Shown: one piece after another, positions 26,479-55,177 of the stretch
How positions within the stretch are numbered: the stretch's first letter is position 1
Layout: every line of letters begins with the position of its first letter
Source of the DNA: Candidatus Zixiibacteriota bacterium
GTDB lineage: Bacteria > Zixibacteria > MSB-5A5 > GN15 > FEB-12
Assembly: GCA_034003725.1 (NCBI GenBank)
Contig: JAVEYB010000002.1
Span: 265,392 to 329,391, forward strand
DNA length: 64,000 bases
Direction of reading: 5' to 3'
Notes under the pieces: generated by a model
Databases searched by the model: none
What the model saw: only the letters and a program-made list of their open reading frames with translations
Told to the model about the DNA's origin: nothing
Translations under genes and position numbers: made by a program

Positions 26479-28866
26479 CTAATGGGCGCGAGGAGTTCCC
26501 GAGGCCGGCGCGGCAGAATCCGTGAGCCGCCGGACGAATACAATCGAGCAGCCGACCAGTATCAGAATCGCGCCCGCCCATACGAGGTTGATGAGCGGCT
26601 TGCGGGACACATCAAGAACCAGCCGTTCCGGCTCGCCGGACTCCAGCAGCCCCGGGACATCGAGTACGATTTCGCCGCGATCGACCTGCAACCCGGCGAT
26701 CGTCACCAGAATCGTATCACCGCCGGCGGTCTGCAGCAGTCCCGGCTCATCGACGAGATGGTTGTGACCGGCATCGTCGATTCGCTGGATGACGGCCGGG
26801 GCGATGGTATCGATTCGCTCACCCTGCCTTACTTCAACCAGCGTGGTGGCGCGTAGCCCCATGGAGGCCTGCGCCGAGTGATCGGAAACGGAGAACCCCA
26901 AAAATGTGAATGTGAACTCGGCCACGGTCTTCGGTTCGTCTCTGGTGAGTGTCAGACCGGCGGCGCGACTAGCTTCGAGAATCTGCTCCGGCGCCATGTA
27001 GAGATCCTCGAGCGTCGTACGCACGATCGCGGGCTTCTTGAACAGCCCGTCCATACGACGAGAATAGTAGAGCTCCGGGCTGAGCTGCTGCGTACGCTGT
27101 TGATCGGTCATCGTCAGGATCAGACGATTGTGGGGTTCCATGACGTCGCCCTCCATCCCGCCGTAGGTGATGGAGACATCGAACGCCTGGCGCGCCTCGT
27201 TGAGCGGGATAATGACTTTCTCACTGGTGCTGAACGCCGATGACGCAAGGATCCCGATCAGCATTATCGTGAAGCCGGTGTGCGCAATATGTCCACCCGT
27301 ACTCCGCCAGTTTCGAATGATTCTTGGCGCCACGATAACAAGGTTCGAGGCAACCCCCATCGCGGCCGTCGCGATAAAGAGGATGTAAAGGGGCTCCGTC
27401 ACGCCGGTCAGGGCCATTGCAAGGACGGCGACAGCCAGCGCCGTGAGCGCCGGGATCAACTTGCCCGCGCCGACCGGCGCGGCAAGGTAGGTGGCGATGC
27501 CGCCAAGCACAATCGTGACAAGCACGGCCACGGTCAACCCCGCACCGAGTACCGCGTAGAAAAGGCCGAAACCCACCACGGCGCCGACCGCGAAACCGAT
27601 ACCGATCGATCGTGGCCGAGCCGGTATTGTCTCGGCAACGAAAGTCGAAAACGGCGAATACATCAGGATAAGCGAGAACAGGATGGCAAACGGAAGAGCG
27701 AAATTGTTGTACGTAGCGATTTCCGCCGCCCGTGGCTCCATGCCCACAAGCGAGGTGAGTACCGGCAGGGAGCTCCAGAAGAGTACCACCGCACCGGTCG
27801 CGAACAGCAACGACATGGCCGCAAACAGCGAAAACTCCCGGCCGTGCGGGTTGTAGTTCAGTGGGTGACTGGGAATGCCGCCCACACGCCAGAGAAACAC
27901 GGTCACGGTCAGCACAAAAAAGAGGGCCATGAATCCGACCAGGTAGACATTAACTCCCAGGTCGACAAAACTGTGGACGGAGAAGTCCGACAACACGCCG
28001 CTGCGGGTGAGAAAGGTTCCGTAGACAACCAGCAGAAACAGCAGCGCCGCCATTAGCAGGTTGACCCGCCGCAGCGCACCCGTTCGCCGTTCAATAATGA
28101 GACCGTGCAGGAGAGCCAGCGAGATCATCCAGGGCACGAACGAGGAGTTTTCCACCGGGTCCCAGCCCCAGTATCCTCCCCACCCGAGCGTCTTATAAGC
28201 CCAGAACCCGCCCAGGATATTGCCCGCGCCGAGCATCACGGCCGTCAGCGCAACCCATGGGAAAGCCAGCCGCAACCAATCGGAAAAGTCGTTTCGCACG
28301 AGCGCCGCGATCGCCAGAGTAAACGGTATGGCCGCGAGCGCGTATCCCACAAACATAATCGGTGGATGCACGACCATCCACGGGTCACGGAGCAGGGGGT
28401 TGAGACCGGCCCCATCCGGCGCATAAAACGACAAATAGGCAAACGGCGAGAGCTTTGTCATGATCAATAGAAAGAAAAGATTGATCAGGCAATAGACAGC
28501 CATCGCCGGTCCAGCGTAGCGACCACCCCGCCGGATGATGACGTAACCGAACAACGCGAGCAACAACAACCAGAGCAGATACGTGCCTTCCTGGCCCCCC
28601 CAGAATGCGGACAGGACATATAAAAACGGCTGCGCTCGTTCCGAGTACTCGAAGACATATTTGAATGCGTAATTGTGAGAGAAAAACAGGTAGTACAAGA
28701 GGGCGCTTGCAAGGACGGCCGATGCAGTGAACACGTGATAGGATCGAATCGCCAGGGATTCCCAGGACTGTCGCCCCCGGCCGAGCAGCCAGAAGCTGAT
28801 ACCGCACACTATATTCATGGCCACACCGACCAAAATCAGCAAATCACCGATGGCCTGTAGCGACAT
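26479..28866 (-). CDS. ccmF: cytochrome c-type biogenesis protein CcmF (heme lyase family)
   Basis: About 795 aa, polytopic. It has the WWD-type motif WGGYWGWDPVENSSFVPW and a CcmF-type C-terminal periplasmic extension. Start taken at ATG 28866 (GGAG SD); the ORF opens at 28986. Confidence 0.87.
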   Translation of the reverse strand: MSLQAIGDLLILVGVAMNIVCGISFWLLGRGRQSWESLAIRSYHVFTASAVLASALLYYLFFSHNYAFKYVFEYSERAQPFLYVLSAFWGGQEGTYLLWLLLLALFGYVIIRRGGRYAGPAMAVYCLINLFFLLIMTKLSPFAYLSFYAPDGAGLNPLLRDPWMVVHPPIMFVGYALAAIPFTLAIAALVRNDFSDWLRLAFPWVALTAVMLGAGNILGGFWAYKTLGWGGYWGWDPVENSSFVPWMISLALLHGLIIERRTGALRRVNLLMAALLFLLVVYGTFLTRSGVLSDFSVHSFVDLGVNVYLVGFMALFFVLTVTVFLWRVGGIPSHPLNYNPHGREFSLFAAMSLLFATGAVVLFWSSLPVLTSLVGMEPRAAEIATYNNFALPFAILFSLILMYSPFSTFVAETIPARPRSIGIGFAVGAVVGFGLFYAVLGAGLTVAVLVTIVLGGIATYLAAPVGAGKLIPALTALAVAVLAMALTGVTEPLYILFIATAAMGVASNLVIVAPRIIRNWRSTGGHIAHTGFTIMLIGILASSAFSTSEKVIIPLNEARQAFDVSITYGGMEGDVMEPHNRLILTMTDQQRTQQLSPELYYSRRMDGLFKKPAIVRTTLEDLYMAPEQILEASRAAGLTLTRDEPKTVAEFTFTFLGFSVSDHSAQASMGLRATTLVEVRQGERIDTIAPAVIQRIDDAGHNHLVDEPGLLQTAGGDTILVTIAGLQVDRGEIVLDVPGLLESGEPERLVLDVSRKPLINLVWAGAILILVGCSIVFVRRLTDSAAPASGTPRAH

Positions 28867-29229
28867 TTCCAACTCCTTCACTGCTGCGGCCCTTGTGATC
28901 ATCGTAACAAGCCGGCAGAGGTAACAGTATGTAACGGTCCGAAATGAAAGGCAAGTAAATAGATGTTGTATGTCCCCCCTGCGCATCGGAATGGCGATCG
29001 TTCAGGCATGACGTCGCACGATCGACACGCATCGGGGCGCGTCAACCATTTGACTTCGCGACATGCACACTCGATGCGAGTTGGCACCGCTGCCGGGCGG
29101 TGAGTCCGATCGGGGAGATAAAGAAAAAAGCAAGCTGCGGGCTCAGTTGACGAAACCGACCGTAGGCAGTATTATGTGCGGCATGTTCAAATGACCGCAT
29201 ATCCCGAGCATACGAGGAAAGGCAGCGTT

Positions 29230-32366: not shown

Positions 32367-32984
32367 CTACCCCAATCGACGCAGGAGCCCGACCACTTTG
32401 CCGGCGATTCGGAACTCTCCCGAACTCCTCTCCACGATGATCGGGGCGAAGGAATCGTTCGCCGGCTCGAGGACTACCCGGGTCTTTTGCGGCACGTAGC
32501 GCTTGACGGTCGCTTCGCCGTTTATCAGCGCCACGACGATTTCACCTTTCTGCGCCGTGTCTTGCTTTTTGACAACGACAACGTCGCCGTCGAGAATACC
32601 CGCGTCTTTCATCGAGTCGCCTTTGACTTTCAGCGAGAAAGAATCGCCCGACGGCAGGAACGTGAAGTCTACCGCGATTTCCCCTTCGATATTCTCGATC
32701 GCGTCAATCGGCGATCCCGCGGGAACCGAGCCTACCAGCGGAACCCGGCCCACCTGCCCTGCCAATGGCCTGGTCAGTTCCAGCCCGCGCGAGATAAACT
32801 CCTGCTTTTTCAGTAATCCCTTTTTCAGGAGGGCGCTTATGTGCGTGCGGACACCGTTCGTGGATCGAATACCAAACGCCTCGCCGATTTCCCGTATGGT
32901 GGGCGCGTGTCCTCGGGACACGATGCGGTCCTGAATGAACTGGAAAATCGCGCGCTGCTTGTCTGTCAGCCTGGCTTTTACCAT
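32367..32984 (-). CDS. lexA: LexA repressor
   Basis: MVKARLTDKQRAIFQFIQDRIVSRGHAPTIREIGEAFGIRSTNGVRTHISALLKKGLL (wHTH). It also has the cleavage/peptidase S24 part VPLVGSVPAGSP...LKVKGDSMKDAGILDGD...VKRY. Start at ATG 32984; the ORF opens at 33041. Confidence 0.93.
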   Translation of the reverse strand: MVKARLTDKQRAIFQFIQDRIVSRGHAPTIREIGEAFGIRSTNGVRTHISALLKKGLLKKQEFISRGLELTRPLAGQVGRVPLVGSVPAGSPIDAIENIEGEIAVDFTFLPSGDSFSLKVKGDSMKDAGILDGDVVVVKKQDTAQKGEIVVALINGEATVKRYVPQKTRVVLEPANDSFAPIIVERSSGEFRIAGKVVGLLRRLG

Positions 32985-33017
32985 TGGGCTTCCCTTGCGT
33001 TTTCGTCCTTCCTGCTT

Positions 33018-33037
33018 ACAGGTTACTGCCCACCTGT
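33018..33037. promoter_or_regulatory. inverted repeat ACAGGT-N8-ACCTGT upstream of lexA (candidate operator)
   Basis: Perfect 6-bp arms at 33018..33023 and 33032..33037, located 34-53 nt upstream of the lexA ATG. It does not match the E. coli-type CTGT-N8-ACAG box. Confidence 0.3.
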
Positions 33038-33154
33038 TCACCTGTCAATAACAAATCTGTGGAAAAGTCCGCTTGCTGAGTTCACGTTTATCCAAAAGAG
33101 AAGCGGCGATCCGGATGCCGGATCGCCGCGACGCATAGATCATTCTGCCGATGG

Positions 33155-41557: not shown

Positions 41558-41564
41558 ATTTAAA

Positions 41565-41680
41565 CCCGGCAGCGTTCTACTCTCCCACACAGTCTCCCAT
41601 GCAGTACCATCGACGTAAACGGGCTTAACTGCTGTGTTCGGAATGGGAACAGGTGTTTCCCCGTCACTATCGCTACCGGA
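41565..41680 (-). rRNA. rrf: 5S rRNA
   Basis: The reverse complement reads CCGGTAGCGATAGTGACGGGGAAACACCTGTTCCCATTCCGAACACAGCAGTTAAGCCCGTTTACGTCGATGGTACTGCATGGGAGACTGTGTGGGAGAGTAGAACGCTGCCGGG, which carries canonical 5S motifs. Ends are accurate to a few nt. Confidence 0.9.
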
Positions 41681-41789
41681 ATATCTATCATAGTTTCTGC
41701 TGCGATGCGGTTTGGCATGCATCGCCCAACAGGCGCGCAGATCGCGCGGTTCTACGGCTTACTCTTAGAAGAGCGTTGATCGTAATTTA

Positions 41790-44803
<3,014 letters not shown>

Positions 44804-44894
44804 GATAACTCACCTAAGAGCATACCTATAGATGCAACGAATCTGCGCAGCCTGTTGGAAGATGCGCAAACCGTTTATTACAGCAGAAACTATG

Positions 44895-44909
44895 TAGTTG
44901 TCAAAGAAC
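44895..44909 (-). promoter_or_regulatory. boxA-like antitermination element in the spacer upstream of 23S
   Basis: The minus strand reads GTTCTTTGACAACTA. This is identical to the 15-mer in the 16S leader (46988..47002) and similar to E. coli rrn boxA TGCTCTTTAACAA. Confidence 0.5.
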
Positions 44910-44965
44910 CGTTGCCCGCCACCGGCGGGCTCTATCACACGCGAACTTGCGTTCGATAGCTGTCA

Positions 44966-45038
44966 TGGAGATGACCGGGATCGAACCGGTGACCTGTGGC
45001 TTGCAAAGCCACCGCTCTCCCAACTGAGCTACATCCCC
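44966..45038 (-). tRNA. tRNA-Ala (anticodon TGC)
   Basis: The reverse complement is GGGGATGTAGCTCAGTTGGGAGAGCGGTGGCTTTGCAAGCCACAGGTCACCGGTTCGATCCCGGTCATCTCCA. The G3-U70 identity pair is present. It lies in the 16S-23S spacer. Confidence 0.95.
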
Positions 45039-45052
45039 GAAATTCTCAGATA

Positions 45053-45129
45053 TGGTGGGCCTAAATGGAGTTGAACCATTGACCTCGCGCTTATCAGGCG
45101 CGCGCTCTAACCAACTGAGCTATAGGCCC
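45053..45129 (-). tRNA. tRNA-Ile (anticodon GAT), CCA encoded
   Basis: The reverse complement is GGGCCTATAGCTCAGTTGGTTAGAGCGCGCGCCTGATAAGCGCGAGGTCAATGGTTCAACTCCATTTAGGCCCACCA. Confidence 0.95.
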
Positions 45130-45286
45130 TTCCACGTAGGCCACCGCCTTACGGCAGTAACGTCATTTATATCTAAACAGCCAGCTAAAGAGCGGGCGAC
45201 ACGAAATCGCCCAAGATGCATGTCTCGAGGCTCGACCTGGATGCGATACCGGTCCGTGAGACCGGCGTGCACACCGTACTCCTTAG

Positions 45287-46838
<1,552 letters not shown>

Positions 46839-47620: not shown

Positions 47621-47956
47621 ATGCTGGCAGTATCTGACAAGGCCTGTGAAGAGCTTCACAAGTTCTTCGAATCCGACCGTGGCAAAGACAACCACCTGAT
47701 CATCTTCTTCCAGGGCATGGCCTGTTCCGGACCATCGCTGGGCCTGACAGTCGACACCAAAGTCGACGAACTGGAGCGGATCGAAGCGAACGGAATCGAA
47801 GCGTATATCGACCCGAAACTTCGCGAGTTTCTGTCGCAGTTCAAGGGGATCCGAATCGACTACATCACGATGGACGACCGGTCGGGGTTTACGATCAAAG
47901 TTGAGGGCGCCGGCGGCTGCGCCAGCTGCGGCGACAAAAGCGAGCACTGCGGGTAG
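47621..47956 (+). CDS. HesB/IscA-like (A-type Fe-S carrier fold) protein, Cys form
   Basis: 111 aa from ATG 47621; the ORF opens at 47477. Sequence: MLAVSDKACEELHKFFESDRGKDNHLIIFFQGMACSGPSLGLTVDTKVDELERIEANGIEAYIDPKLREFLSQFKGIRIDYITMDDRSGFTIKVEGAGGCASCGDKSEHCG. It has the IscA-like layout, with Cys35 and a C-terminal Cys cluster. Confidence 0.82.
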   Translation: MLAVSDKACEELHKFFESDRGKDNHLIIFFQGMACSGPSLGLTVDTKVDELERIEANGIEAYIDPKLREFLSQFKGIRIDYITMDDRSGFTIKVEGAGGCASCGDKSEHCG

Positions 47957-48144
47957 GTATTTCCGCATCGCACGCAATAACAACAGACTTTCCGCGTGAC
48001 ACTCGGCGGTAGAAGGCATTAGCTTACAAGAGCGAGCGGTGATTCACCGCACGATGATTGAAATGCGGGGGAGGCATCCAGCCTCAGCATCATTGTCCAT
48101 CTTCCCCATCAGACAAACAATAATCAGTTCAGGGGAGGTACCTG

Positions 48145-50334
48145 ATGTTGGAAAAACCCGTTCAGTGGCGGCTTGCTTTCTTGCTTTGCGGCCTGATCTC
48201 TTGCCTGTCCTCAGCCAGCCTTACTGCGGCGGCAGAAGACACAACTATGAGCCGGCTGGAGTATTTGGCCACGTACGGATTCAATGCGGATTCGACCCAG
48301 AAATACCCGCTGTACATCCCAGGCGATTCTACCACGTATCTCGGCCCACGACAGACACTCTTTAGCAGACAGCACATAATCAACCAGTGGGTCGATTGCA
48401 GCCCTTCCCAAATGCCGACTTTGGTGTACTACTTCTATGCAGATTATGGTTACATAGATGTCAAGGTCGAGCCAATGGATTACAGCGTCAATTGGGATTT
48501 CTACGTGAGAACCAACGGGCTTTACCCCGAATCCGGCTCAATAGTGCTCCGAGGAGATGCTCACTCCTACGGAGAAGCAGAGGAAGGGTACTTCCACAAC
48601 GATTCCAAAGACAAGTTCGTTCTGATAATGGGACCTTCGGCTATTGACCAATGCGAGGGATTCGGTTGGGTGCAGGGAGTGACCATTACGCTCACGTACA
48701 CGCCCTACGAGTGGGATCTCCAGCTTACAAACGTGACGACCAGCACAGTATACCCCCAGAACTCAGCAACCATTACTGTGAACTGGCGAAACAATAATCC
48801 GGATAGCTTGTATGCAAGATCCAAGTTCGAGTATGGGTTCGACGTTGACCTCAAGTGGACGCCACACACGTGCTATTCGTCAGTCGATAGATCTAATCGT
48901 GTCTGGGATGATATTGCTCCATACGAAACAGTCTCGGAAACGTTCACAATCAATGGTCCTCAATCAGGGGCTATGAACGTGTTCGCCGTCATTGACGACT
49001 CGCAGGAACTACCACATTCTCCCTCGGGCGGTCCGTGGAACAACTGCTCTTCCCCTTTGCAGCTGCTTTGGTCAGTGCATCTAGAAGGTCAGTTATCATT
49101 ACTTGATCCACTGACTGCCACCTACCAGAACCTCGCTGGGTTTCAGTTTGAGTTCGTGCGCCCCGGCTGGACAACCACGGTCCTCGCCCAGGTCACCACA
49201 GATGCCAATGGACACTACACGGCTGAAATAGCCTCAGGAAACTTCGATATATATGCTCGAATCTCTTCAGAACAACCACCGCCGTACTTGCCTGTCAAGA
49301 ACTATGGCACGAGCGGGTACTTCCGCAGATCGTTCAACACCAACACCACTGCAACCGCAGCACAACATACAATCACCCTCCTTATTGATAGCTCAACTTT
49401 CGTCAGCCCTGACGCACTCTATCCTGCCTTGCGTATCACTCGCGACCTCTTCACTACCGACTCCCTGTTGTCTCAGGTTGAACCGTTCAGTTTGGCGGGC
49501 TGGGATTTCCGAAGTCTCGTTGATGTTTACATGGATACATCCGGGACCGCCACCCTCAGTGGTTGGGGGTTGGCTGGCCTCAATCCAGTGATCGTAATGC
49601 CTGCGTCGGAGTATGTTAATCAGATCGCCTGCCATGAGCTTGGGCATCAAGCCATGTATATGCTACAAAACAACGTGGTGCGGCCTCCGGCGCCCAGTTC
49701 TTCGCCGCACTGGCGGAATTCGGTCACCGATACGGTTTTCGCATTCGATGAGGGGTTCTCGGAGTTCGTCCATGGGATATCCACCAAGGACGAATTGCTC
49801 CGATCAACTACGGGGCTGACCGGCCCTCATCATCTGGAAACGAACCAGTACTGGCAGGGGACGGACTCAAATGTTGCGACGACGTACGAGGCGGATAGCG
49901 TCGAAGGTTGCGTGGCAAGTATACTGTACGACTTATATGACAACCGGACCACGCCTGCTTCGCGAACAATCGCCGAAGATGACCTTGTGCGCAGTCCGCA
50001 GTATATGCTCGAAGTCATCATGAAGAGCATCTTCAACTACCGCACTGGCGGTCAACAGACGCGGGCGCTGCGCACGTTCCTGGACAGAATGCTTCACGAC
50101 CCGGCCAATCCGTGGTTCACCGATTCGCTGGTGTTCGATCCAATGCGCACTGAGATATGCAATATCTTTCGAGACAATCACCTGACGACAGACTCCGATT
50201 TCTGCCAGGCATCAAGTATAGTATACGACATCGATACCAGCGCCACATACAACAGTCGCGCGGACCGGACAACCGAATTCTCGTCACAGCCGAGCGAGCC
50301 GACTGAAACCATGAAGAACGATGGTGACCTATGA
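48145..50334 (+). CDS. secreted multidomain HEXXH zinc-metalloprotease-like protein
   Basis: GGGGAGG SD and signal peptide MLEKPVQWRLAFLLCGLISCLSSASLTAAA. It has PPC-like, CARDB-like and carboxypeptidase-regulatory-like beta domains. The HELGH motif is at codons 497-501 (49633..49647), with a downstream FDEGFSEF as a candidate third-ligand Glu. Confidence 0.83.
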   Translation: MLEKPVQWRLAFLLCGLISCLSSASLTAAAEDTTMSRLEYLATYGFNADSTQKYPLYIPGDSTTYLGPRQTLFSRQHIINQWVDCSPSQMPTLVYYFYADYGYIDVKVEPMDYSVNWDFYVRTNGLYPESGSIVLRGDAHSYGEAEEGYFHNDSKDKFVLIMGPSAIDQCEGFGWVQGVTITLTYTPYEWDLQLTNVTTSTVYPQNSATITVNWRNNNPDSLYARSKFEYGFDVDLKWTPHTCYSSVDRSNRVWDDIAPYETVSETFTINGPQSGAMNVFAVIDDSQELPHSPSGGPWNNCSSPLQLLWSVHLEGQLSLLDPLTATYQNLAGFQFEFVRPGWTTTVLAQVTTDANGHYTAEIASGNFDIYARISSEQPPPYLPVKNYGTSGYFRRSFNTNTTATAAQHTITLLIDSSTFVSPDALYPALRITRDLFTTDSLLSQVEPFSLAGWDFRSLVDVYMDTSGTATLSGWGLAGLNPVIVMPASEYVNQIACHELGHQAMYMLQNNVVRPPAPSSSPHWRNSVTDTVFAFDEGFSEFVHGISTKDELLRSTTGLTGPHHLETNQYWQGTDSNVATTYEADSVEGCVASILYDLYDNRTTPASRTIAEDDLVRSPQYMLEVIMKSIFNYRTGGQQTRALRTFLDRMLHDPANPWFTDSLVFDPMRTEICNIFRDNHLTTDSDFCQASSIVYDIDTSATYNSRADRTTEFSSQPSEPTETMKNDGDL

Positions 50335-51401
50335 AATACTTCCTTATTACCATAACCGGCCTGGCGCTACTGACATTCTCAGCATCGCAGGCGCAGATCA
50401 ACCAGACCATAGAATTCCACACCTTCGACCAGATTGGTTTGAGATACGCCCCTCGGATAATCTCCGGCACGGTCTATTTTGAGAGTCTGCCGGAACCGCT
50501 GAAGAAGACGAGAGTTCGATTCGAAATCTACTTCAACTCCGTGGCCAACTACATTGGCGATAACCCCCTCGAACGTGACACCCTGGTGCACATTGCCTTC
50601 GAAGAATACCGGGTGGAAGTCTCAGATACGCTCTTTGTCTGGCCGGCACCAATTTACACCAACGAACCATTTAAAGGTGAGTTCGAAATAACACCGCTAA
50701 TGGCAGGAAACAGCTCCTTCGCCATTCACCTGATCGATCAACGGTTCGGGGCGCTTGGGGTTAGCTGGACCTTTGACGTTGACGGCAACCTTCTCTACCT
50801 GGGTAATCCAGCCGATACCACTCAAAAAGGAACCCGAGCTTACAAAGGCATCAACTACCCTGCCATCTTCTTTGAGGGTGACAGTATCGCTTTTGAACCA
50901 TACCCCGCATCAAATGCTCCGCCCTATGATGCATTGCGTTTCGCGTGCGTTATTACACCTGTCCCCCGAATTGGAGACACCTCGTACATCTCCTGCCGTG
51001 TCAACGCAATCAAGAGCATCGCTGATTCGGTCAGGATTGAACTTCGGAGGCGAGGCATTAGCGTACTTGGTGAACCTACAACGGCGGTGAAGTCGCTCAC
51101 AAGAGGTGAGGAGGAAGAATTTCGCACTGGGTTCGTCCCTTTGGCCGTGAACGGACCTCAGTACTTGTCATTCACTTTCAGGACAGTCGAGACCGAGCAG
51201 CAGCAAGTTATACCGCTCGACTTCGTCTTCAACAACGACAGCACTCTGCGATTCATCGGGAATCTCTTCAACTACGGCGATCATCCCCCCGATTCATATC
51301 TCCCGACTGCCTTCCAGAGTATGGAGGTCTATGAAGCGGCCCGCAAGGAAGAGAAGCGAAAAGTTGACTCTATCAAGAACGCCGGCGCCAAGCGGTTCTA
51401 A
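50331..51401 (+). CDS. secreted hypothetical protein (orphan) between the two peptidase-like genes
   Basis: 356 aa with signal peptide MKYFLITITGLALLTFSASQAQ. A 4-nt ATGA overlap with the upstream gene suggests translational coupling. It has a Lys/Glu-rich C-terminal tail and no recognised family motif. Confidence 0.78.
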   Translation: MKYFLITITGLALLTFSASQAQINQTIEFHTFDQIGLRYAPRIISGTVYFESLPEPLKKTRVRFEIYFNSVANYIGDNPLERDTLVHIAFEEYRVEVSDTLFVWPAPIYTNEPFKGEFEITPLMAGNSSFAIHLIDQRFGALGVSWTFDVDGNLLYLGNPADTTQKGTRAYKGINYPAIFFEGDSIAFEPYPASNAPPYDALRFACVITPVPRIGDTSYISCRVNAIKSIADSVRIELRRRGISVLGEPTTAVKSLTRGEEEEFRTGFVPLAVNGPQYLSFTFRTVETEQQQVIPLDFVFNNDSTLRFIGNLFNYGDHPPDSYLPTAFQSMEVYEAARKEEKRKVDSIKNAGAKRF

Positions 51402-51421
51402 CGGAATAGAGGGAGGACAAG

Positions 51422-53095
51422 ATGAAAACGAAACTTGTGATAGTAGCGCTGTTTGCAGCCGTGTGCCTGTCGAACGCTCAGGTACTCGCCCTCGGGCGAC
51501 TACTAATCATCACGAACGAAGAGATGAAGCCTGCGTTCGAGCACTATTCAGAATGGAAGTCGCTGTTCGGCATCCCTGCCGATATCGTCACGGTCGAATA
51601 CATCCAGACATCGTACGCCGGGGACAGCCTTCAAGTGAAGATCAGAGAGTGCCTGCGTGACTACCACAACAACCACCAGTCGGACTGGGCTATCCTCGGC
51701 GGAGATATCGACATTATCCCTCACATGATCGTTAATTCTCTCAGGGCGCATCCCGCCGGTGACACGTACTATACCAATCTGGACGGCGACTGGAACGCTA
51801 ACGGCAACGATCTTTTCGGAGAACCCCCGGGATACGGCGACCAGACGGACTATGAGCCGGATATTTTCGTCGCGCGCATCCCGTGTGTGGACAGCACCCA
51901 GGCAGCGACCGTTATTCGGAAGCTGGTCGAATACCAGTCCTGCCCGGCCGACACCAACTACCAGAATGAGGTGCTTCTGATGGGAACTCGCGTGATCGTG
52001 TCGATAGACAAGTCCGAAGACTTCTATCACCCGGTCGAAACAGAATATTTTCTGGACACCCTCATCCCCCATCTCCCAGCGAATCTCAACAGAACAAGAC
52101 TCTTCGAAGAGGCGTCACAGACCGTGAAGACGGAGTTGAGCGCCGGGTATGGCTTGATCGTCAACAACAGCCAGGCTCAATGGGCGGGCAACTTCCTCAC
52201 GCACTGGACTACCACCCCGTGGCATCGAGACGCCATTGAGTTCCCGTTTATGGCAGACTCCATGATGAACACTGGGAAATACAGCGTGTTTTTCAACTCG
52301 ACCTGCCTCAACAACTGCCTCTCCTCAACCGCTGCCATCGGCCGGCATTTTATGCTGAACCCGAATGGCGGCGGCGTTGCTTACATCGGGTCAAGCAATC
52401 TGGACTGGTTGGCCGCCAGCTACCCGGATTTCTGTTACGACATGATGGACTTGATGTTCGAGGACGGGTACGAAATCGGCAAAGCGTTCGCACTGGCAAA
52501 AGCTGCGCTGACACCCTCAGATGCCTGGCTTGACAACTACCGTCGGTTCGCCTACCACGCCTATATGCTGCTTGGAGATCCCCAGCTCAGCGTGTTCTCT
52601 GATGTCCCAAAAACACTGCGCAGCTCGCTCTCGATTCCACTTACGCCCGGCCAGATGACCTTTGTCGTGGCCGTGATATCGGACTCGGGCGAATCGGTGG
52701 CTGGCGCAACCGTATGCCTGACCCAGGACAGCACGGTATATGTAACCAGGCAGACCGATGGACTCGGGATCGCTACCTTCAGCGATGTTCTCTTTGAACA
52801 TGAAGGACTTGCGACAATCGGCATGATGAAGAGCGGCTACCTGATGCATCTCGATTCCGTGTTCGTAGGCGCCTGCTGTCTTGGTGTCCGGGGCAATGTA
52901 AACGGCGACCAACAGGATATCTGCGATCTAGCAGACCTTATGTTCCTTGTCAACTACCTCTTGCAAGGCGGGGCCGCACCTGAATGCTTTGACGAAGCAG
53001 ATCTCAACGCCGACGGTTCCATTGATTTGAGTGACGAGATTTACCTCACGAATTATTTGTTCCTGGGTGGTCAGGTACCTTACGATTGCCAGTAA
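51422..53095 (+). CDS. peptidase C25 (gingipain)-like secreted protein with double dockerin-like C-terminus
   Basis: AGGGAGGA SD and signal peptide MKTKLVIVALFAAVCLSNAQ. The C25 pattern is LLIITNEE...W.SLFGI...WAILGGDIDIIP...YTNLDGDW...EPDIFVARIP...VIRKLVEYQ. The candidate dyad is His261 (LTHW) and Cys295 (NSTCLNN), 34 residues apart. The C-terminus is CCLGVRGNVNGD..CDLADLMFLVNYLLQGG..P.C...LNADGSIDLSDEIYLTNYLFLGG. Confidence 0.86.
   Translation: MKTKLVIVALFAAVCLSNAQVLALGRLLIITNEEMKPAFEHYSEWKSLFGIPADIVTVEYIQTSYAGDSLQVKIRECLRDYHNNHQSDWAILGGDIDIIPHMIVNSLRAHPAGDTYYTNLDGDWNANGNDLFGEPPGYGDQTDYEPDIFVARIPCVDSTQAATVIRKLVEYQSCPADTNYQNEVLLMGTRVIVSIDKSEDFYHPVETEYFLDTLIPHLPANLNRTRLFEEASQTVKTELSAGYGLIVNNSQAQWAGNFLTHWTTTPWHRDAIEFPFMADSMMNTGKYSVFFNSTCLNNCLSSTAAIGRHFMLNPNGGGVAYIGSSNLDWLAASYPDFCYDMMDLMFEDGYEIGKAFALAKAALTPSDAWLDNYRRFAYHAYMLLGDPQLSVFSDVPKTLRSSLSIPLTPGQMTFVVAVISDSGESVAGATVCLTQDSTVYVTRQTDGLGIATFSDVLFEHEGLATIGMMKSGYLMHLDSVFVGACCLGVRGNVNGDQQDICDLADLMFLVNYLLQGGAAPECFDEADLNADGSIDLSDEIYLTNYLFLGGQVPYDCQ
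52874..53092 (+). other. CC-framed double dockerin-like C-terminal module, copy 3
   Basis: See 21065..21298 and 31203..31439. Confidence 0.6.
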
Positions 53096-53122
53096 CCCCT
53101 TAATTGCAAATATCTTACAGCG

Positions 53123-53151
53123 ATAGACGTCGCCGTCCCGGTGGCGTCTAT
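53123..53151 (+). terminator. hairpin downstream of the C25-like gene (possible terminator)
   Basis: ATAGACGTCGCC / GGTGGCGTCTAT form a 12-bp stem with two G-U pairs and a 5-nt loop (GTCCC). It is followed by TCCATTT, a weak T-tract. Confidence 0.4.
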
Positions 53152-53261
53152 TCCATTTATGGTGAATTTGAGACTCTTTGATCGCTATTCTGAATCAAAA
53201 GGGGTATATTTTCATCTAAAGATTGACCGATATCGACGAAGACGGCAATTTGAGGACTACT

Positions 53262-53591
53262 ATGCTAAACGTTTCCGACAAGGCCAGCCAGGAGCTCAAG
53301 ACATTCCTGGCGTCCGATAAAGGCAAGGGCAACCACCTTGTCATTTACTTCCAGGGCATGGGCTGAGGGGGCCCCAGTTTGGGGTTGGCTCTGGATGAGT
53401 CAGTGGATGGATTAGAAAAGCTCGAACACAACGGTATCGAGACGTATATTGAGGCCGGGCTGAAGGAGTTCCTGAAGCAGTTCGACGAAATCTCGATCGA
53501 TCATGTTACGATCGGGGGTCGTACGGGATTCGTCGTACGAGTCGGCGCGGGTTGCGACAGCGGCAGTTGCTCGTCCGGAACCTGCGGCTGA
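53262..53591 (+). CDS. HesB/IscA-like protein with in-frame TGA at codon 35 (candidate selenocysteine form)
   Basis: ATG 53262 follows a GAGGA SD. Sequence: MLNVSDKASQELKTFLASDKGKGNHLVIYFQGMG-[TGA 53364..53366]-GGPSLGLALDESVDGLEKLEHNGIETYIEAGLKEFLKQFDEISIDHVTIGGRTGFVVRVGAGCDSGSCSSGTCG. It aligns without gaps to the 47621..47956 paralog through residue 95 (the Cys-rich tails differ by 2 residues), and the TGA falls on that paralog's Cys35. The track lists only the 70-aa tail (53379..53591). Confidence 0.7.
53370..53386 (+). promoter_or_regulatory. candidate bacterial SECIS-like hairpin immediately 3' of the TGA
   Basis: GGCCCC (53370..53375) pairs with GGGGUU (53381..53386) through 4 G-C and 2 G-U pairs. 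The apical loop is AGUUU. The stem starts 4 nt after the UGA. Confidence 0.3.
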
Positions 53592-53619: not shown

Positions 53620-53654
53620 CAGGCGGGTCGACCGCGGTCGTACCCGCCTGTTTT
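53620..53654 (+). terminator. rho-independent terminator of the TGA-containing hesB-like gene
   Basis: CAGGCGGGT (53620..53628) pairs with ACCCGCCTG (53642..53650), a 9-bp GC-rich stem, followed by TTTT. Confidence 0.6.
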
Positions 53655-53713: not shown

Positions 53714-53788
53714 TGCCGGGGTAGCTCAGTTGGTTAGAGCACCAGATTGTGGATCTGGGGGTCGAGCGTTCGAGCCGCTCCCCCGGTA
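53714..53788 (+). tRNA. tRNA-His (anticodon GTG)
   Basis: GCCGGGG TA GCTC AGTTGGTTA GAGC A CCAGA TTGTGGA TCTGG GGGGTC GAGCG TTCGAGC CGCTC CCCCGGT A. Position -1 is T rather than G, the discriminator is A, and there is a G1-U72 wobble. Confidence 0.85.
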
Positions 53789-54073
53789 TTTTCTCTTAAT
53801 GTCTCCGTAACAACCAGACGCGTCAGGATCCGACCGGAAGCGGTCCGGTTGTGTCACACCTGACTAAGCCGGCTGCAATCGTCCGCATCGCATTACGGTG
53901 CCGATTCTGTGCGTCCGCATGATCCTTTCGTGAAATCAGCTTCTTCGGCCCCATACGACGCGTGTTGCATTGCAAGCACTTCGCACTTCGGCACCGAACT
54001 TGCATTCTTCCCGGTTCACACGCGGAACGGGGGCACATCATGTGACAGCCTTCGACGCAGGGAGGTACCGAAG

Positions 54074-54682
54074 ATGAAACACGCGCTGCGCGCACTCATC
54101 GCCGGAATGATCATCCTCCTCGTTGGCCCGGGTTCGGACATCGTCGCATTTCCACTGACAACTATCGACTTTGATGATCTTTCCGACGGAACGTTGGTCA
54201 GTGACCAGTATGCCGCGCTCGGTATCACGTTTGCCGGATATGACATATTCGGCTCACGCGATATACGATCGGGCTATTTCGGAGGACCGTCGGGCACAAT
54301 CGTGCTCGATTCGTATTGTAACGGCGGGGGGTATATCCAGGCCACGTTTACCGGACCGGTCGACTTCGTGTCAGTCGACTTCCAGCTCTTCGAGGGCGAT
54401 GATCCGTTGACACTCGAACTGTACAATGCGGCCGGGGAAATCGTAGTCAGCCGGACGGTTTTCGGGCTCGATGATCAGTGGTACACGCTGACGGCGCGAT
54501 CTGCCGCCCAGGACGTAGCCTTCGCCCGATTCTATGGATTCGGCGACGACGGAGTAAACGCCGTGTACAACGACAACATCTCATTCGGAAACTCTGCCGT
54601 CATACCGGAGCCCGCCACATTTGGACTGGTCGGCCTGGGGTTGTTGTCGCTCGCCGTAGTACGACGGCAGCATCGGCGATAG
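54074..54682 (+). CDS. PEP-CTERM sorting-domain protein
   Basis: GGAGG SD and ATG 54074 (MKHALRALIAGMIILLVGPG). The C-terminus VIPEPATFGLVGLGLLSLAVVRRQHRR has the PEP motif, a TM helix and a basic tail. The ORF opens at 53909. Confidence 0.85.
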   Translation: MKHALRALIAGMIILLVGPGSDIVAFPLTTIDFDDLSDGTLVSDQYAALGITFAGYDIFGSRDIRSGYFGGPSGTIVLDSYCNGGGYIQATFTGPVDFVSVDFQLFEGDDPLTLELYNAAGEIVVSRTVFGLDDQWYTLTARSAAQDVAFARFYGFGDDGVNAVYNDNISFGNSAVIPEPATFGLVGLGLLSLAVVRRQHRR

Positions 54683-54799: not shown

Positions 54800-55177
54800 T
54801 CAACGTCCGGTGGCCCCGGGGTAGACATCATCGGGGCCCGCCTCCCGGCGCCGTTCCTGCCACTGGTCGAACAGGCGGCCTTTGCGAAGTCCCTGCAAGC
54901 GGGCTTTCTGACGGGCCTCCTGAATCGGCTGATTGGGGCGCAGGGGAAGGTCGCACAATCCCTGCAGCGCCATTACCTGCTCGCGCTCGCCTTCCCGGCG
55001 GCGGAAATGAATGATGTTGAATTCCAGGTCCGGGAGGTCGTCCTCGTCCTCCGGCAGGAATATCGACCACAGCTCGCGAGGCAGACCGTCCAGCATCAGT
55101 TGGATGTTGTCATAGTGGTACAGTGCTTCGTCCACGTCGTAGTTCATTGCCGACTCGATGACTTGGAGACCGGACAC
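54800..55177 (-). CDS. hypothetical protein (acidic N-half, basic C-half)
   Basis: 125 aa with a GTG start; ATG 55147 is an alternative. No family was recognised. It lies downstream of the signalling gene on the same strand. Confidence 0.5.
   Translation of the reverse strand: MSGLQVIESAMNYDVDEALYHYDNIQLMLDGLPRELWSIFLPEDEDDLPDLEFNIIHFRRREGEREQVMALQGLCDLPLRPNQPIQEARQKARLQGLRKGRLFDQWQERRREAGPDDVYPGATGR

Follow-up and report, generated by a model that had tools for sequence, protein, structure and literature searches.

HesB-like selenoproteins have been known since the surveys of 2004–2006. In bacterial genomes, 11 of them were counted (PMC1794560), a review of 2026 identifies the family with the model TIGR01911 and gives its motif as UxGP, where U is selenocysteine (Sec) (PMC13188914), and the HesB-like selenoprotein of Methanococcus maripaludis was confirmed via 75Se labelling (PMC11097638). 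We analyzed a stretch of 64,000 nucleotides from a Candidatus Zixiibacteriota bacterium (contig JAVEYB010000002.1 of the assembly GCA_034003725.1), hereafter called the window, in which the forward-strand gene at 53262–53591 is interrupted by an in-frame TGA. We consider it very probable that this gene encodes selenocysteine and that its product is a HesB/IscA-like selenoprotein with the fold of the A-type Fe-S carriers. The gene is mis-annotated and belongs to the selenoprotein kind described above, in a lineage that does not appear in the earlier papers; a sequence-only reading of the window, which had proposed this candidate, was correct in stating that the HesB-like family is already known to contain selenoproteins (PMC1794560, PMC13188914).

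Like the proteins covered by TIGR01911 (M. maripaludis MMJJ_08070 and members from Geobacter, Desulfovibrio and Symbiobacterium), the window gene encodes a small single-domain protein related to IscA/HesB; in each case a single Sec sits within a UxGP motif, at the place of the first ligand Cys, and both have Cys homologs in other organisms (PMC1794560, PMC13188914, PMC11097638). The window protein differs from them by its longer Gly/Ser/Cys-rich tail (C-x4-C-x4-C), by a score below the cut-off of the model and by its origin, Zixibacteria and GN15 not being mentioned in the selenoproteome literature searched. A second curated model, NF038090 (IscA_HesB_Se), can be aligned with it from end to end and shares the core C/U-G-G-P-S-L-G-L-A-L-D-E, and the Cys members P0014–P0016 of NF038090 are its nearest full-length database proteins. 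The A-type carriers IscA, SufA and ErpA (PF01521; PDB entries 1R94, 1S98, 1X0G, 2D2A, and 2APN) have the same fold as the model of a Cys-containing paralog encoded in the window, with position 35 as their first ligand, whereas the window protein has Sec instead of Cys35 and a disordered Cys-rich tail instead of the canonical C-terminal C-G-C, and its gene, flanked by an rRNA operon and a tRNA-His gene, is part of no isc, suf, or nif operon. The fru/frc and vhu/vhc genes of Methanococcus resemble the present case in that a Sec gene and a Cys paralog coexist in one genome, and the two are adjacent in three of the related loci (L001, L003, and L004); in contrast to the Methanococcus pairs, the pairing described here occurs in one sub-lineage only and is known from the genes alone.

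Reading frame of the proposed Sec gene

The start codon, ATG 53262–53264, is preceded by a Shine-Dalgarno-like GAGGA (53252–53256, forward strand) that can be read directly in the sequence 5 nt upstream. The frame runs through 34 sense codons, the TGA at 53364–53366 (codon 35), 74 sense codons and a TGA stop at 53589–53591, that is, 109 codons including Sec35 plus the stop. It translates as MLNVSDKASQELKTFLASDKGKGNHLVIYFQGMG-TGA(53364–53366)-GGPSLGLALDES...SSGTCG, and the residues spanning Sec35 in the full-length U-containing sequence are GMG-U-GGPSLGLALDESVDGLEK. The list of open reading frames (ORFs) of the window shows merely the 70-aa tail, starting at TTG 53379. The sequence exactly matches what the sequence-only reading had given for the start, the GAGGA, the in-frame TGA and the truncated ORF. 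The extent of the proposed coding sequence is supported by its full-length alignment to NF038090 and by the substitution pattern of its N-terminal part.

This pattern was measured on a codon alignment of 15 sequences, 13 of which begin with ATG and 2 with GTG. The mean entropies at the three codon positions are 0.81/0.62/1.42 bits for codons 2–34 and 0.70/0.49/1.39 bits for codons 48–83, the two regions being indistinguishable; upstream of the start codon, the entropy is flat over 60 nt, with about 1.7 bits. The 34 codons before the TGA evolve as coding sequence, a point on which the earlier proposal depended, as their entropy pattern equals that of codons 48–83.

The TGA codon is conserved in related loci

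We examined 36 loci, the window included, from Zixibacteria, GN15, related metagenome-assembled genomes (MAGs), and metagenome contigs; the 35 others come from other assemblies. Their sources were genome collections and those of Logan, ENA, and JGI, and they represent 14 genome assemblies plus some 20 metagenome/Logan contigs. The DNA sets consisted of three Logan/NCBI contigs, 14 GTDB species-genome loci, of which 13 span the codon, 19 metagenome contigs, four further Logan contigs, with the TGA itself read in L037, and one ENA contig (L041). The L015 copy is carried by the complete chromosome CP070796.1 and L004 is the MAG50 contig JAHLKV010000001.1.

The first in-frame stop is a TGA at the homologous codon in 36/36 loci, while TAA, TAG, or a Cys codon is found there in 0/36. 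L009 and L029 have it at codon 34, and all the other loci at codon 35. The motif U-[GS]-G-P is present in all 36 loci, in the form U-G-G-P in the window, and the related loci have 44–90% amino-acid identity to the window protein. When the read-through product was compared with 5.8 billion proteins, 16 matches were obtained, 13 of which are fragments of 62–72 aa whose first residue coincides with, or lies a few residues from, one and the same TTG/ATG just downstream of the TGA; some of these fragments are NCBI entries that come from MAGs of Zixibacteria and GN15.

The TGA could in principle be a nonsense mutation, or a sequencing or assembly error at 53364–53366, with the nearby Cys paralog as the functional gene, and a single window cannot exclude an error. 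However, the same TGA stands in 35 independently assembled loci, at the above range of identity and with purifying selection on both sides, and the Cys paralog is seen in only four loci besides the window and forms a family of 2 clusters in 5.8 billion proteins. Because the TGA recurs in all the loci despite their divergence, an error or a nonsense pseudogene, which the sequence-only reading had named among the cases that would speak against it, is ruled out for practical purposes and is barely credible.

Protein family and fold

For scoring with hidden Markov models, U was replaced by C in the Sec protein. The best NCBIfam model is NF038090 IscA_HesB_Se (68.2 bits, E = 6e-19), with residues 1–105 aligned to positions 1–101 of the 101 of the model, followed by TIGR01911 HesB_rel_seleno (40.5 bits, E = 3e-10); the Cys protein P0014 scores 117 bits against NF038090. 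Comparison with PDB sequences shows that U35 aligns with the marked Cys of GGGC*SG in HI1723 (2APN) and in Aquifex IscA (1NWB).

The Cys paralog, standing in for the Sec form, was modelled with AlphaFold2 (AF2). The model, with a predicted local distance difference test (pLDDT) score of 85.7, adopts the IscA/SufA fold followed by a disordered tail (residues 99–111). Foldseek matched it to HI1723 (2APN), E. coli IscA (1R94 and 1S98), the [2Fe-2S] IscA 1X0G, and SufA 2D2A, with template modelling (TM) scores of 0.6–0.7, a probability of 1.0, and E-values of 4e-6 to 6e-5. Residues 1–34 contribute one strand, one helix, and one long strand to the fold, and position 35 is located in the turn before the next strand. 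Judging by its alignment both with the paralog's Cys35 and with the ligand Cys in 2APN and 1NWB, Sec35 is the position of the first cluster/metal ligand (IscA Cys35), as had been proposed from the sequence; the first of the three A-type ligand positions is thus held by Sec in the window protein. The C-terminal tail contains three conserved cysteines, C98, C103, and C108, whose spacing is unlike C-x-C, and is modelled as disordered.

The fold also bears on the alternative that the locus carries two small genes, one for a 34-aa peptide ending at the TGA and the other for a 70-aa protein starting at TTG/ATG 53379. Gene callers do list 34-aa and 70-aa ORFs in several assemblies. Since residues 1–34 supply a strand, the helix, and a long strand, the 70-aa product would be devoid of a third of a fold that needs them, and both parts, taken together, match IscA/HesB models and structures of a single domain over their entire length. 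Moreover, 53379 has no Shine-Dalgarno sequence upstream and the start is not conserved, with TTG, ATG, CTG, and ATT found at codon 42 and TTG, CTG, GTG, TCG, CTC, and TTA at codon 40. Two separate genes are, in our opinion, highly improbable.

Hairpins downstream of the TGA

RNAalifold, run unguided on the alignment, predicted two hairpins downstream of the TGA. In the first, proximal and small (53372–53384, CCCC/GGGG stem, loop AGUUU, in the Gly-Pro...Gly codons), 53372–53375 pairs with 53381–53384. Its core is a CCC/GGG stem contributed by Pro and Gly codons, with three pairs invariant or nearly so; the fourth pair joins the third positions of two Gly codons and occurs as G-C, C-G, U-A, A-U, and G.U variants.

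The second hairpin (53386–53402, stem UGGCUC/GAGUCA) is the candidate apical hairpin of a selenocysteine insertion sequence (SECIS). Here 53386–53391 pairs with 53397–53402 around the loop UGGAU (53392–53396). The loop starts 26 nt past the UGA and has a G at its position 2, and the stem is 5–6 bp long. In 31 distinct sequences, 97% of the cells are paired, versus 26–54% for slid controls, and a G.U to A-U change is seen in five sequences; the hairpin was found again in L041. The UGA-to-loop distance in the description of bSECISearch is said to range from 16 to 37 nt. An apical loop that is small and includes a G at such a position is expected of a bacterial SECIS (PMC1088965), and the conservation of the second hairpin suggests that it is the bacterial SECIS signature of the gene.

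The codons that contain the hairpins hardly vary at synonymous sites. The third-position entropy falls to 0.51 bits in codons 36–47, Pro38 is CCC in 15/15 sequences, and each residue of L-A-L-D-E-S (codons 42–47) is encoded by one codon: TTG in 8/8, GCT in 12/12, CTG in 15/15, GAT in 12/12, GAG in 15/15, and TCA in 15/15. In the rest of the gene, 3–6 codons occur per conserved column of Leu, Ser, Ala, or Gly. Columns with a single codon account for 6/9 within codons 36–47 and for 1/37 outside (Fisher p = 5.9e-5). What argues for the hairpin is, in terms of the alignment, a conservation that exceeds the apparent needs of the protein.

Two further pairings were rejected. An extended form of the first hairpin, in which UGAG pairs with CUC as in the minimum-free-energy fold of L001, is contradicted by an A at the pairing position in most sequences, and the pairing of an upstream TCCAG with CUGGA is broken in the sequences that have ATG or GCC at that codon. 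The segment 53381–53423, which includes the hairpin with the GGA loop, gave a non-significant and probably meaningless CsrB-like match (5.5 bits, E = 9.4).

Genetic code and decoding of the UGA

TGA is an ordinary stop in 12 of the 20 confident genes of the window, including proS, nusA, infB, fusA, and the end of the Sec gene itself; therefore there is no reassignment as in code 4 or code 25, and the recoding must be local. A scan of 267 kb for a TGA followed by a hairpin returned HesB genes only. Another scan, extending ORFs in the 5′ direction through a TGA, had suggested two more candidates, lexA (32367–33041, minus strand), with a TGA at 33047 and an open frame beyond it, and the gene of an 835-aa membrane protein (26479–28986, minus strand), with a TGA at 29004 and likewise an open frame beyond it. 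Both were discarded, as the upstream translation is not a coding extension in either case.

Several results weigh against Sec insertion. First, the family scores are low: 68.2 bits for NF038090 against a curated cut-off of 85 bits, 40.5 for TIGR01911 against 66.35, and 22.1 bits for PF01521 Fe-S_biosyn (Sec form; 21.1 for the Cys paralog) against a gathering threshold of 26.3. Because its score is below the curated threshold of NF038090, the window protein is placed in a sister clade of this family and not among its members. Second, the hairpins have weak points. The fourth pair of the first hairpin forms in 19/31 sequences and fails in 12/31, for which reason we treat this hairpin as auxiliary; it is partly dictated by the Gly-Pro codons and may be in part a by-product of the GP..G motif. 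The second hairpin is nearly invariant and so offers scarcely any compensatory change. The region after the UGA does not fold with a better energy than shuffled sequence does (z = −1.1 and +0.3), which leaves sequence comparison as the sole support for the hairpin, and Rfam covariance models applied to 131 nt gave no match to a SECIS family even at E ≤ 10. The sequence-only reading had proposed a SECIS prediction for this region; what was recovered is a conserved hairpin with frozen synonymous sites, but no covariance match. Third, neither the 64 kb of the window nor the related loci, about 200 kb in all, yielded selA, selB, selD, or tRNA-Sec. Twenty large ORFs of the window scanned with NCBIfam gave housekeeping genes only and no Sec machinery, ARAGORN detected no tRNA-Sec in the window or in any of the loci, and tblastn with E. 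coli SelA, SelB, and SelD against the window and related loci matched only the GTPase domain of IF2. Lastly, literature searches with the terms selenocysteine, selenoprotein, and selD retrieved no report of Sec use in Zixibacteria.

The missing machinery in the window and related loci, together with a hairpin that is defined solely by conservation and unmatched in Rfam, would also fit a selenium-independent read-through of the UGA, by hairpin-stimulated near-cognate decoding (Trp, Cys, or Arg) or by a suppressor tRNA, which would place a standard residue at position 35. Yet homologs invariably have Cys, the family's functional ligand, as the aligned residue, a classic Sec/Cys signature; among curated families, the HesB-like TIGR01911 (selenoprotein) and NF038090 (IscA_HesB_Se) are the nearest; and the hairpin has the position and the small G-containing loop expected of a bacterial SECIS (PMC1088965). 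In addition, the TGA is strictly kept although one point mutation would give Cys or Trp, and thus the UGA should encode something that Cys and Trp codons cannot. These points make read-through without selenium improbable.

That both the UGA and the hairpin are strictly kept across a deep clade would be difficult to understand if the lineage did not decode the UGA, and Sec is by far the likeliest reading because of the Cys-aligned position and the kinship with HesB-like selenoproteins. The conserved TGA, the Cys at the aligned position, and the hairpin after the UGA are all in line with the sequence-only reading, which had taken a UGA/Cys pair with coding sequence on both sides as the mark of a selenoprotein.

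From these comparisons we infer SelB/SECIS decoding, selenium incorporation, and the biochemical role of the window protein, along the following lines. The ribosome would meet the UGA at codon 35, and the conserved mRNA hairpin 20–36 nt downstream would act as the SECIS, probably with the help of the small GC hairpin located directly before it. The SECIS would recruit SelB-GTP-Sec-tRNA(Sec), and Sec would be inserted in place of termination, whereas the second TGA, at 53589, which has no SECIS, would end translation. Sec35 would lie in the turn between two β-strands, at the first cluster/metal ligand position, and, with the Cys-rich tail (C98, C103, and C108), would probably bind iron, an Fe-S cluster, or another thiophilic ligand. 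Sec decoding in Zixibacteria, GN15, and related lineages is what the gene implies, and it would then be the first documented Sec use in Zixibacteria/GN15, as the searchable literature holds no such report.

The Cys paralog

The Cys paralog lies upstream on the same strand (47621–47956), ends with TAG and reads ...FFQGMA-C-SGPSLGL..., where C is the TGT 47723–47725. It is 54–55% identical to the Sec protein over 111 residues, and codon 35 of the Sec gene therefore falls on Cys35 of the paralog. The same-strand position, the TGT at codon 35, and an identity of roughly one half had all been noted from the sequence and were confirmed here by the alignment, to which a neighbour-joining (NJ) tree and the AF2 model add.

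In the paralogs of the window, L001, L002, and L003, the Cys codon is TGT or TGC, the hairpin sequence is absent, synonymous sites vary, and the protein motif has drifted from LALDES to LTVDTK. In the NJ tree, the four Cys paralogs branch as sister to the Sec copies from their own genomes (bootstrap 92/100) and are nested in an otherwise all-Sec clade, which points to a lineage-specific duplication followed by a Sec-to-Cys conversion. The tree and the sequence comparison indicate that the Cys paralog is a lineage-specific duplicate that lost Sec and the hairpin: in the upstream copy, Sec was converted to Cys and the SECIS was lost. A Sec copy with a frozen SECIS and a recent Cys duplicate without the hairpin, in which LALDES became LTVDTK, constitute a natural experiment.

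The Cys paralog may act as a selenium-independent isoform. That the two paralogs form a selenium-responsive isoform switch as in Methanococcus, with the selenolate of Sec directly coordinating iron or an Fe-S cluster in an A-type carrier, is a tentative idea that we consider rather unlikely; if it is true, the Zixibacteria family would be a tractable model of why Fe-S trafficking makes use of selenium.

No Cys paralog was found in the majority of the loci whose upstream flank reaches 3 kb or more. In L001, L003, and L004, the Sec and Cys genes are separated by 135–136 bp (1177–1312 in L001), with no insert genes. In the window, comparison of the loci reveals a 5.3 kb insert between the paralogs (47957–53261, forward strand), with three genes, at 48145–50334, 50331–51401, and 51422–53095. 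They do not belong to the selenoprotein system; the first two encode 729-aa and 356-aa proteins without a Pfam match, and the third a 557-aa protein with a peptidase C25 and a dockerin domain. The closest relatives, L037–L039, have a 3.3 kb insert with two genes (1175–4475 in L037), and L040 ends within the second of these genes.

The wider family and its annotation

A profile of the C-terminal part of the protein, run against 1.84 billion cluster representatives, retrieved 366 relatives. The best 150 of these 366 comprise 93 fragments of at most 85 aa that begin right after the Sec column, 38 full-length proteins with Cys in this column, and 12 full-length proteins with a ‘W’ (P0042, P0051, P0054, P0070, P0080, P0108, P0120, P0121, P0124, P0131, P0141, and P0162). 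In P0054 (L041, 130–450), the sole ‘W’ case checked, the codon is TGA and is followed by the same GGCUCUGGAAGAGUC hairpin; the ‘W’ thus reflects gene calling with code 4 (UGA = Trp), and, on this sequence evidence, the ‘W’ entries are in all likelihood hidden selenoprotein calls. The alternation of U and C in this column, for which the sequence-only reading had asked one to look, is present: read in this way, the column alternates between U and C with the UGA form predominant, and the close subfamily is all TGA except for the tandem Cys paralogs. About 70% of the 50%-identity representatives of the family appear to carry UGA, which would make selenium use the rule and not the exception in this Fe-S-carrier-like family.

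Public predictions give the Sec gene of this clade as a fragment of 60–75 aa, as a split pair of 34 + 70 aa, or as a ‘W’ read-through form. P0002, for example, the nearest public record (NCBI, RBT76_04270, candidate division Zixibacteria, on a 464 kb contig), is annotated as a 62-aa hypothetical protein and has 98% identity to the window protein over 62 aa. The fragments, split pairs, and ‘W’ forms bear out the earlier expectation that pipelines mis-call the gene. As the clade scores too low for either of the curated HesB-like models of NCBIfam, it calls for a new model or a lowered threshold. The gene can serve annotation work and can mark the use of Sec in Zixibacteria/GN15.

Genomic neighbourhood

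In the sub-lineage of the window, the order 16S rRNA, Cys copy, Sec copy, and tRNA-His is syntenic. The conserved 3′ neighbour is a tRNA-His(GUG) gene, found by ARAGORN at 53714–53789 on the forward strand of the window; in 19 sequences, among them the window and distant ones, it follows the Sec gene at a distance of 100–750 bp. Between the true stop of the Sec gene and this tRNA gene, a hairpin followed by a U-tract (53620–53654, forward strand) resembles an intrinsic terminator, with a folding energy of −30.5 kcal/mol (z = −4.2).

On the other side, a complete rRNA operon occupies 41564–46838 on the minus strand, with 16S (45287–46838), tRNA-Ile, tRNA-Ala, 23S, and 5S genes. The segment 46000–47267, comprising the 5′ end of the 16S gene and about 430 nt outside it, shares about 92.5% identity with L004 (JAHLKV010000001.1). 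Just downstream of the tRNA-His gene, 53909–54682 encodes a PEP-CTERM-anchored protein (PF07589, 27 bits). This gene has no counterpart at that place in L004 and L001, and a conserved block corresponding to 54863–55148 sits nearer to the tRNA gene in both.

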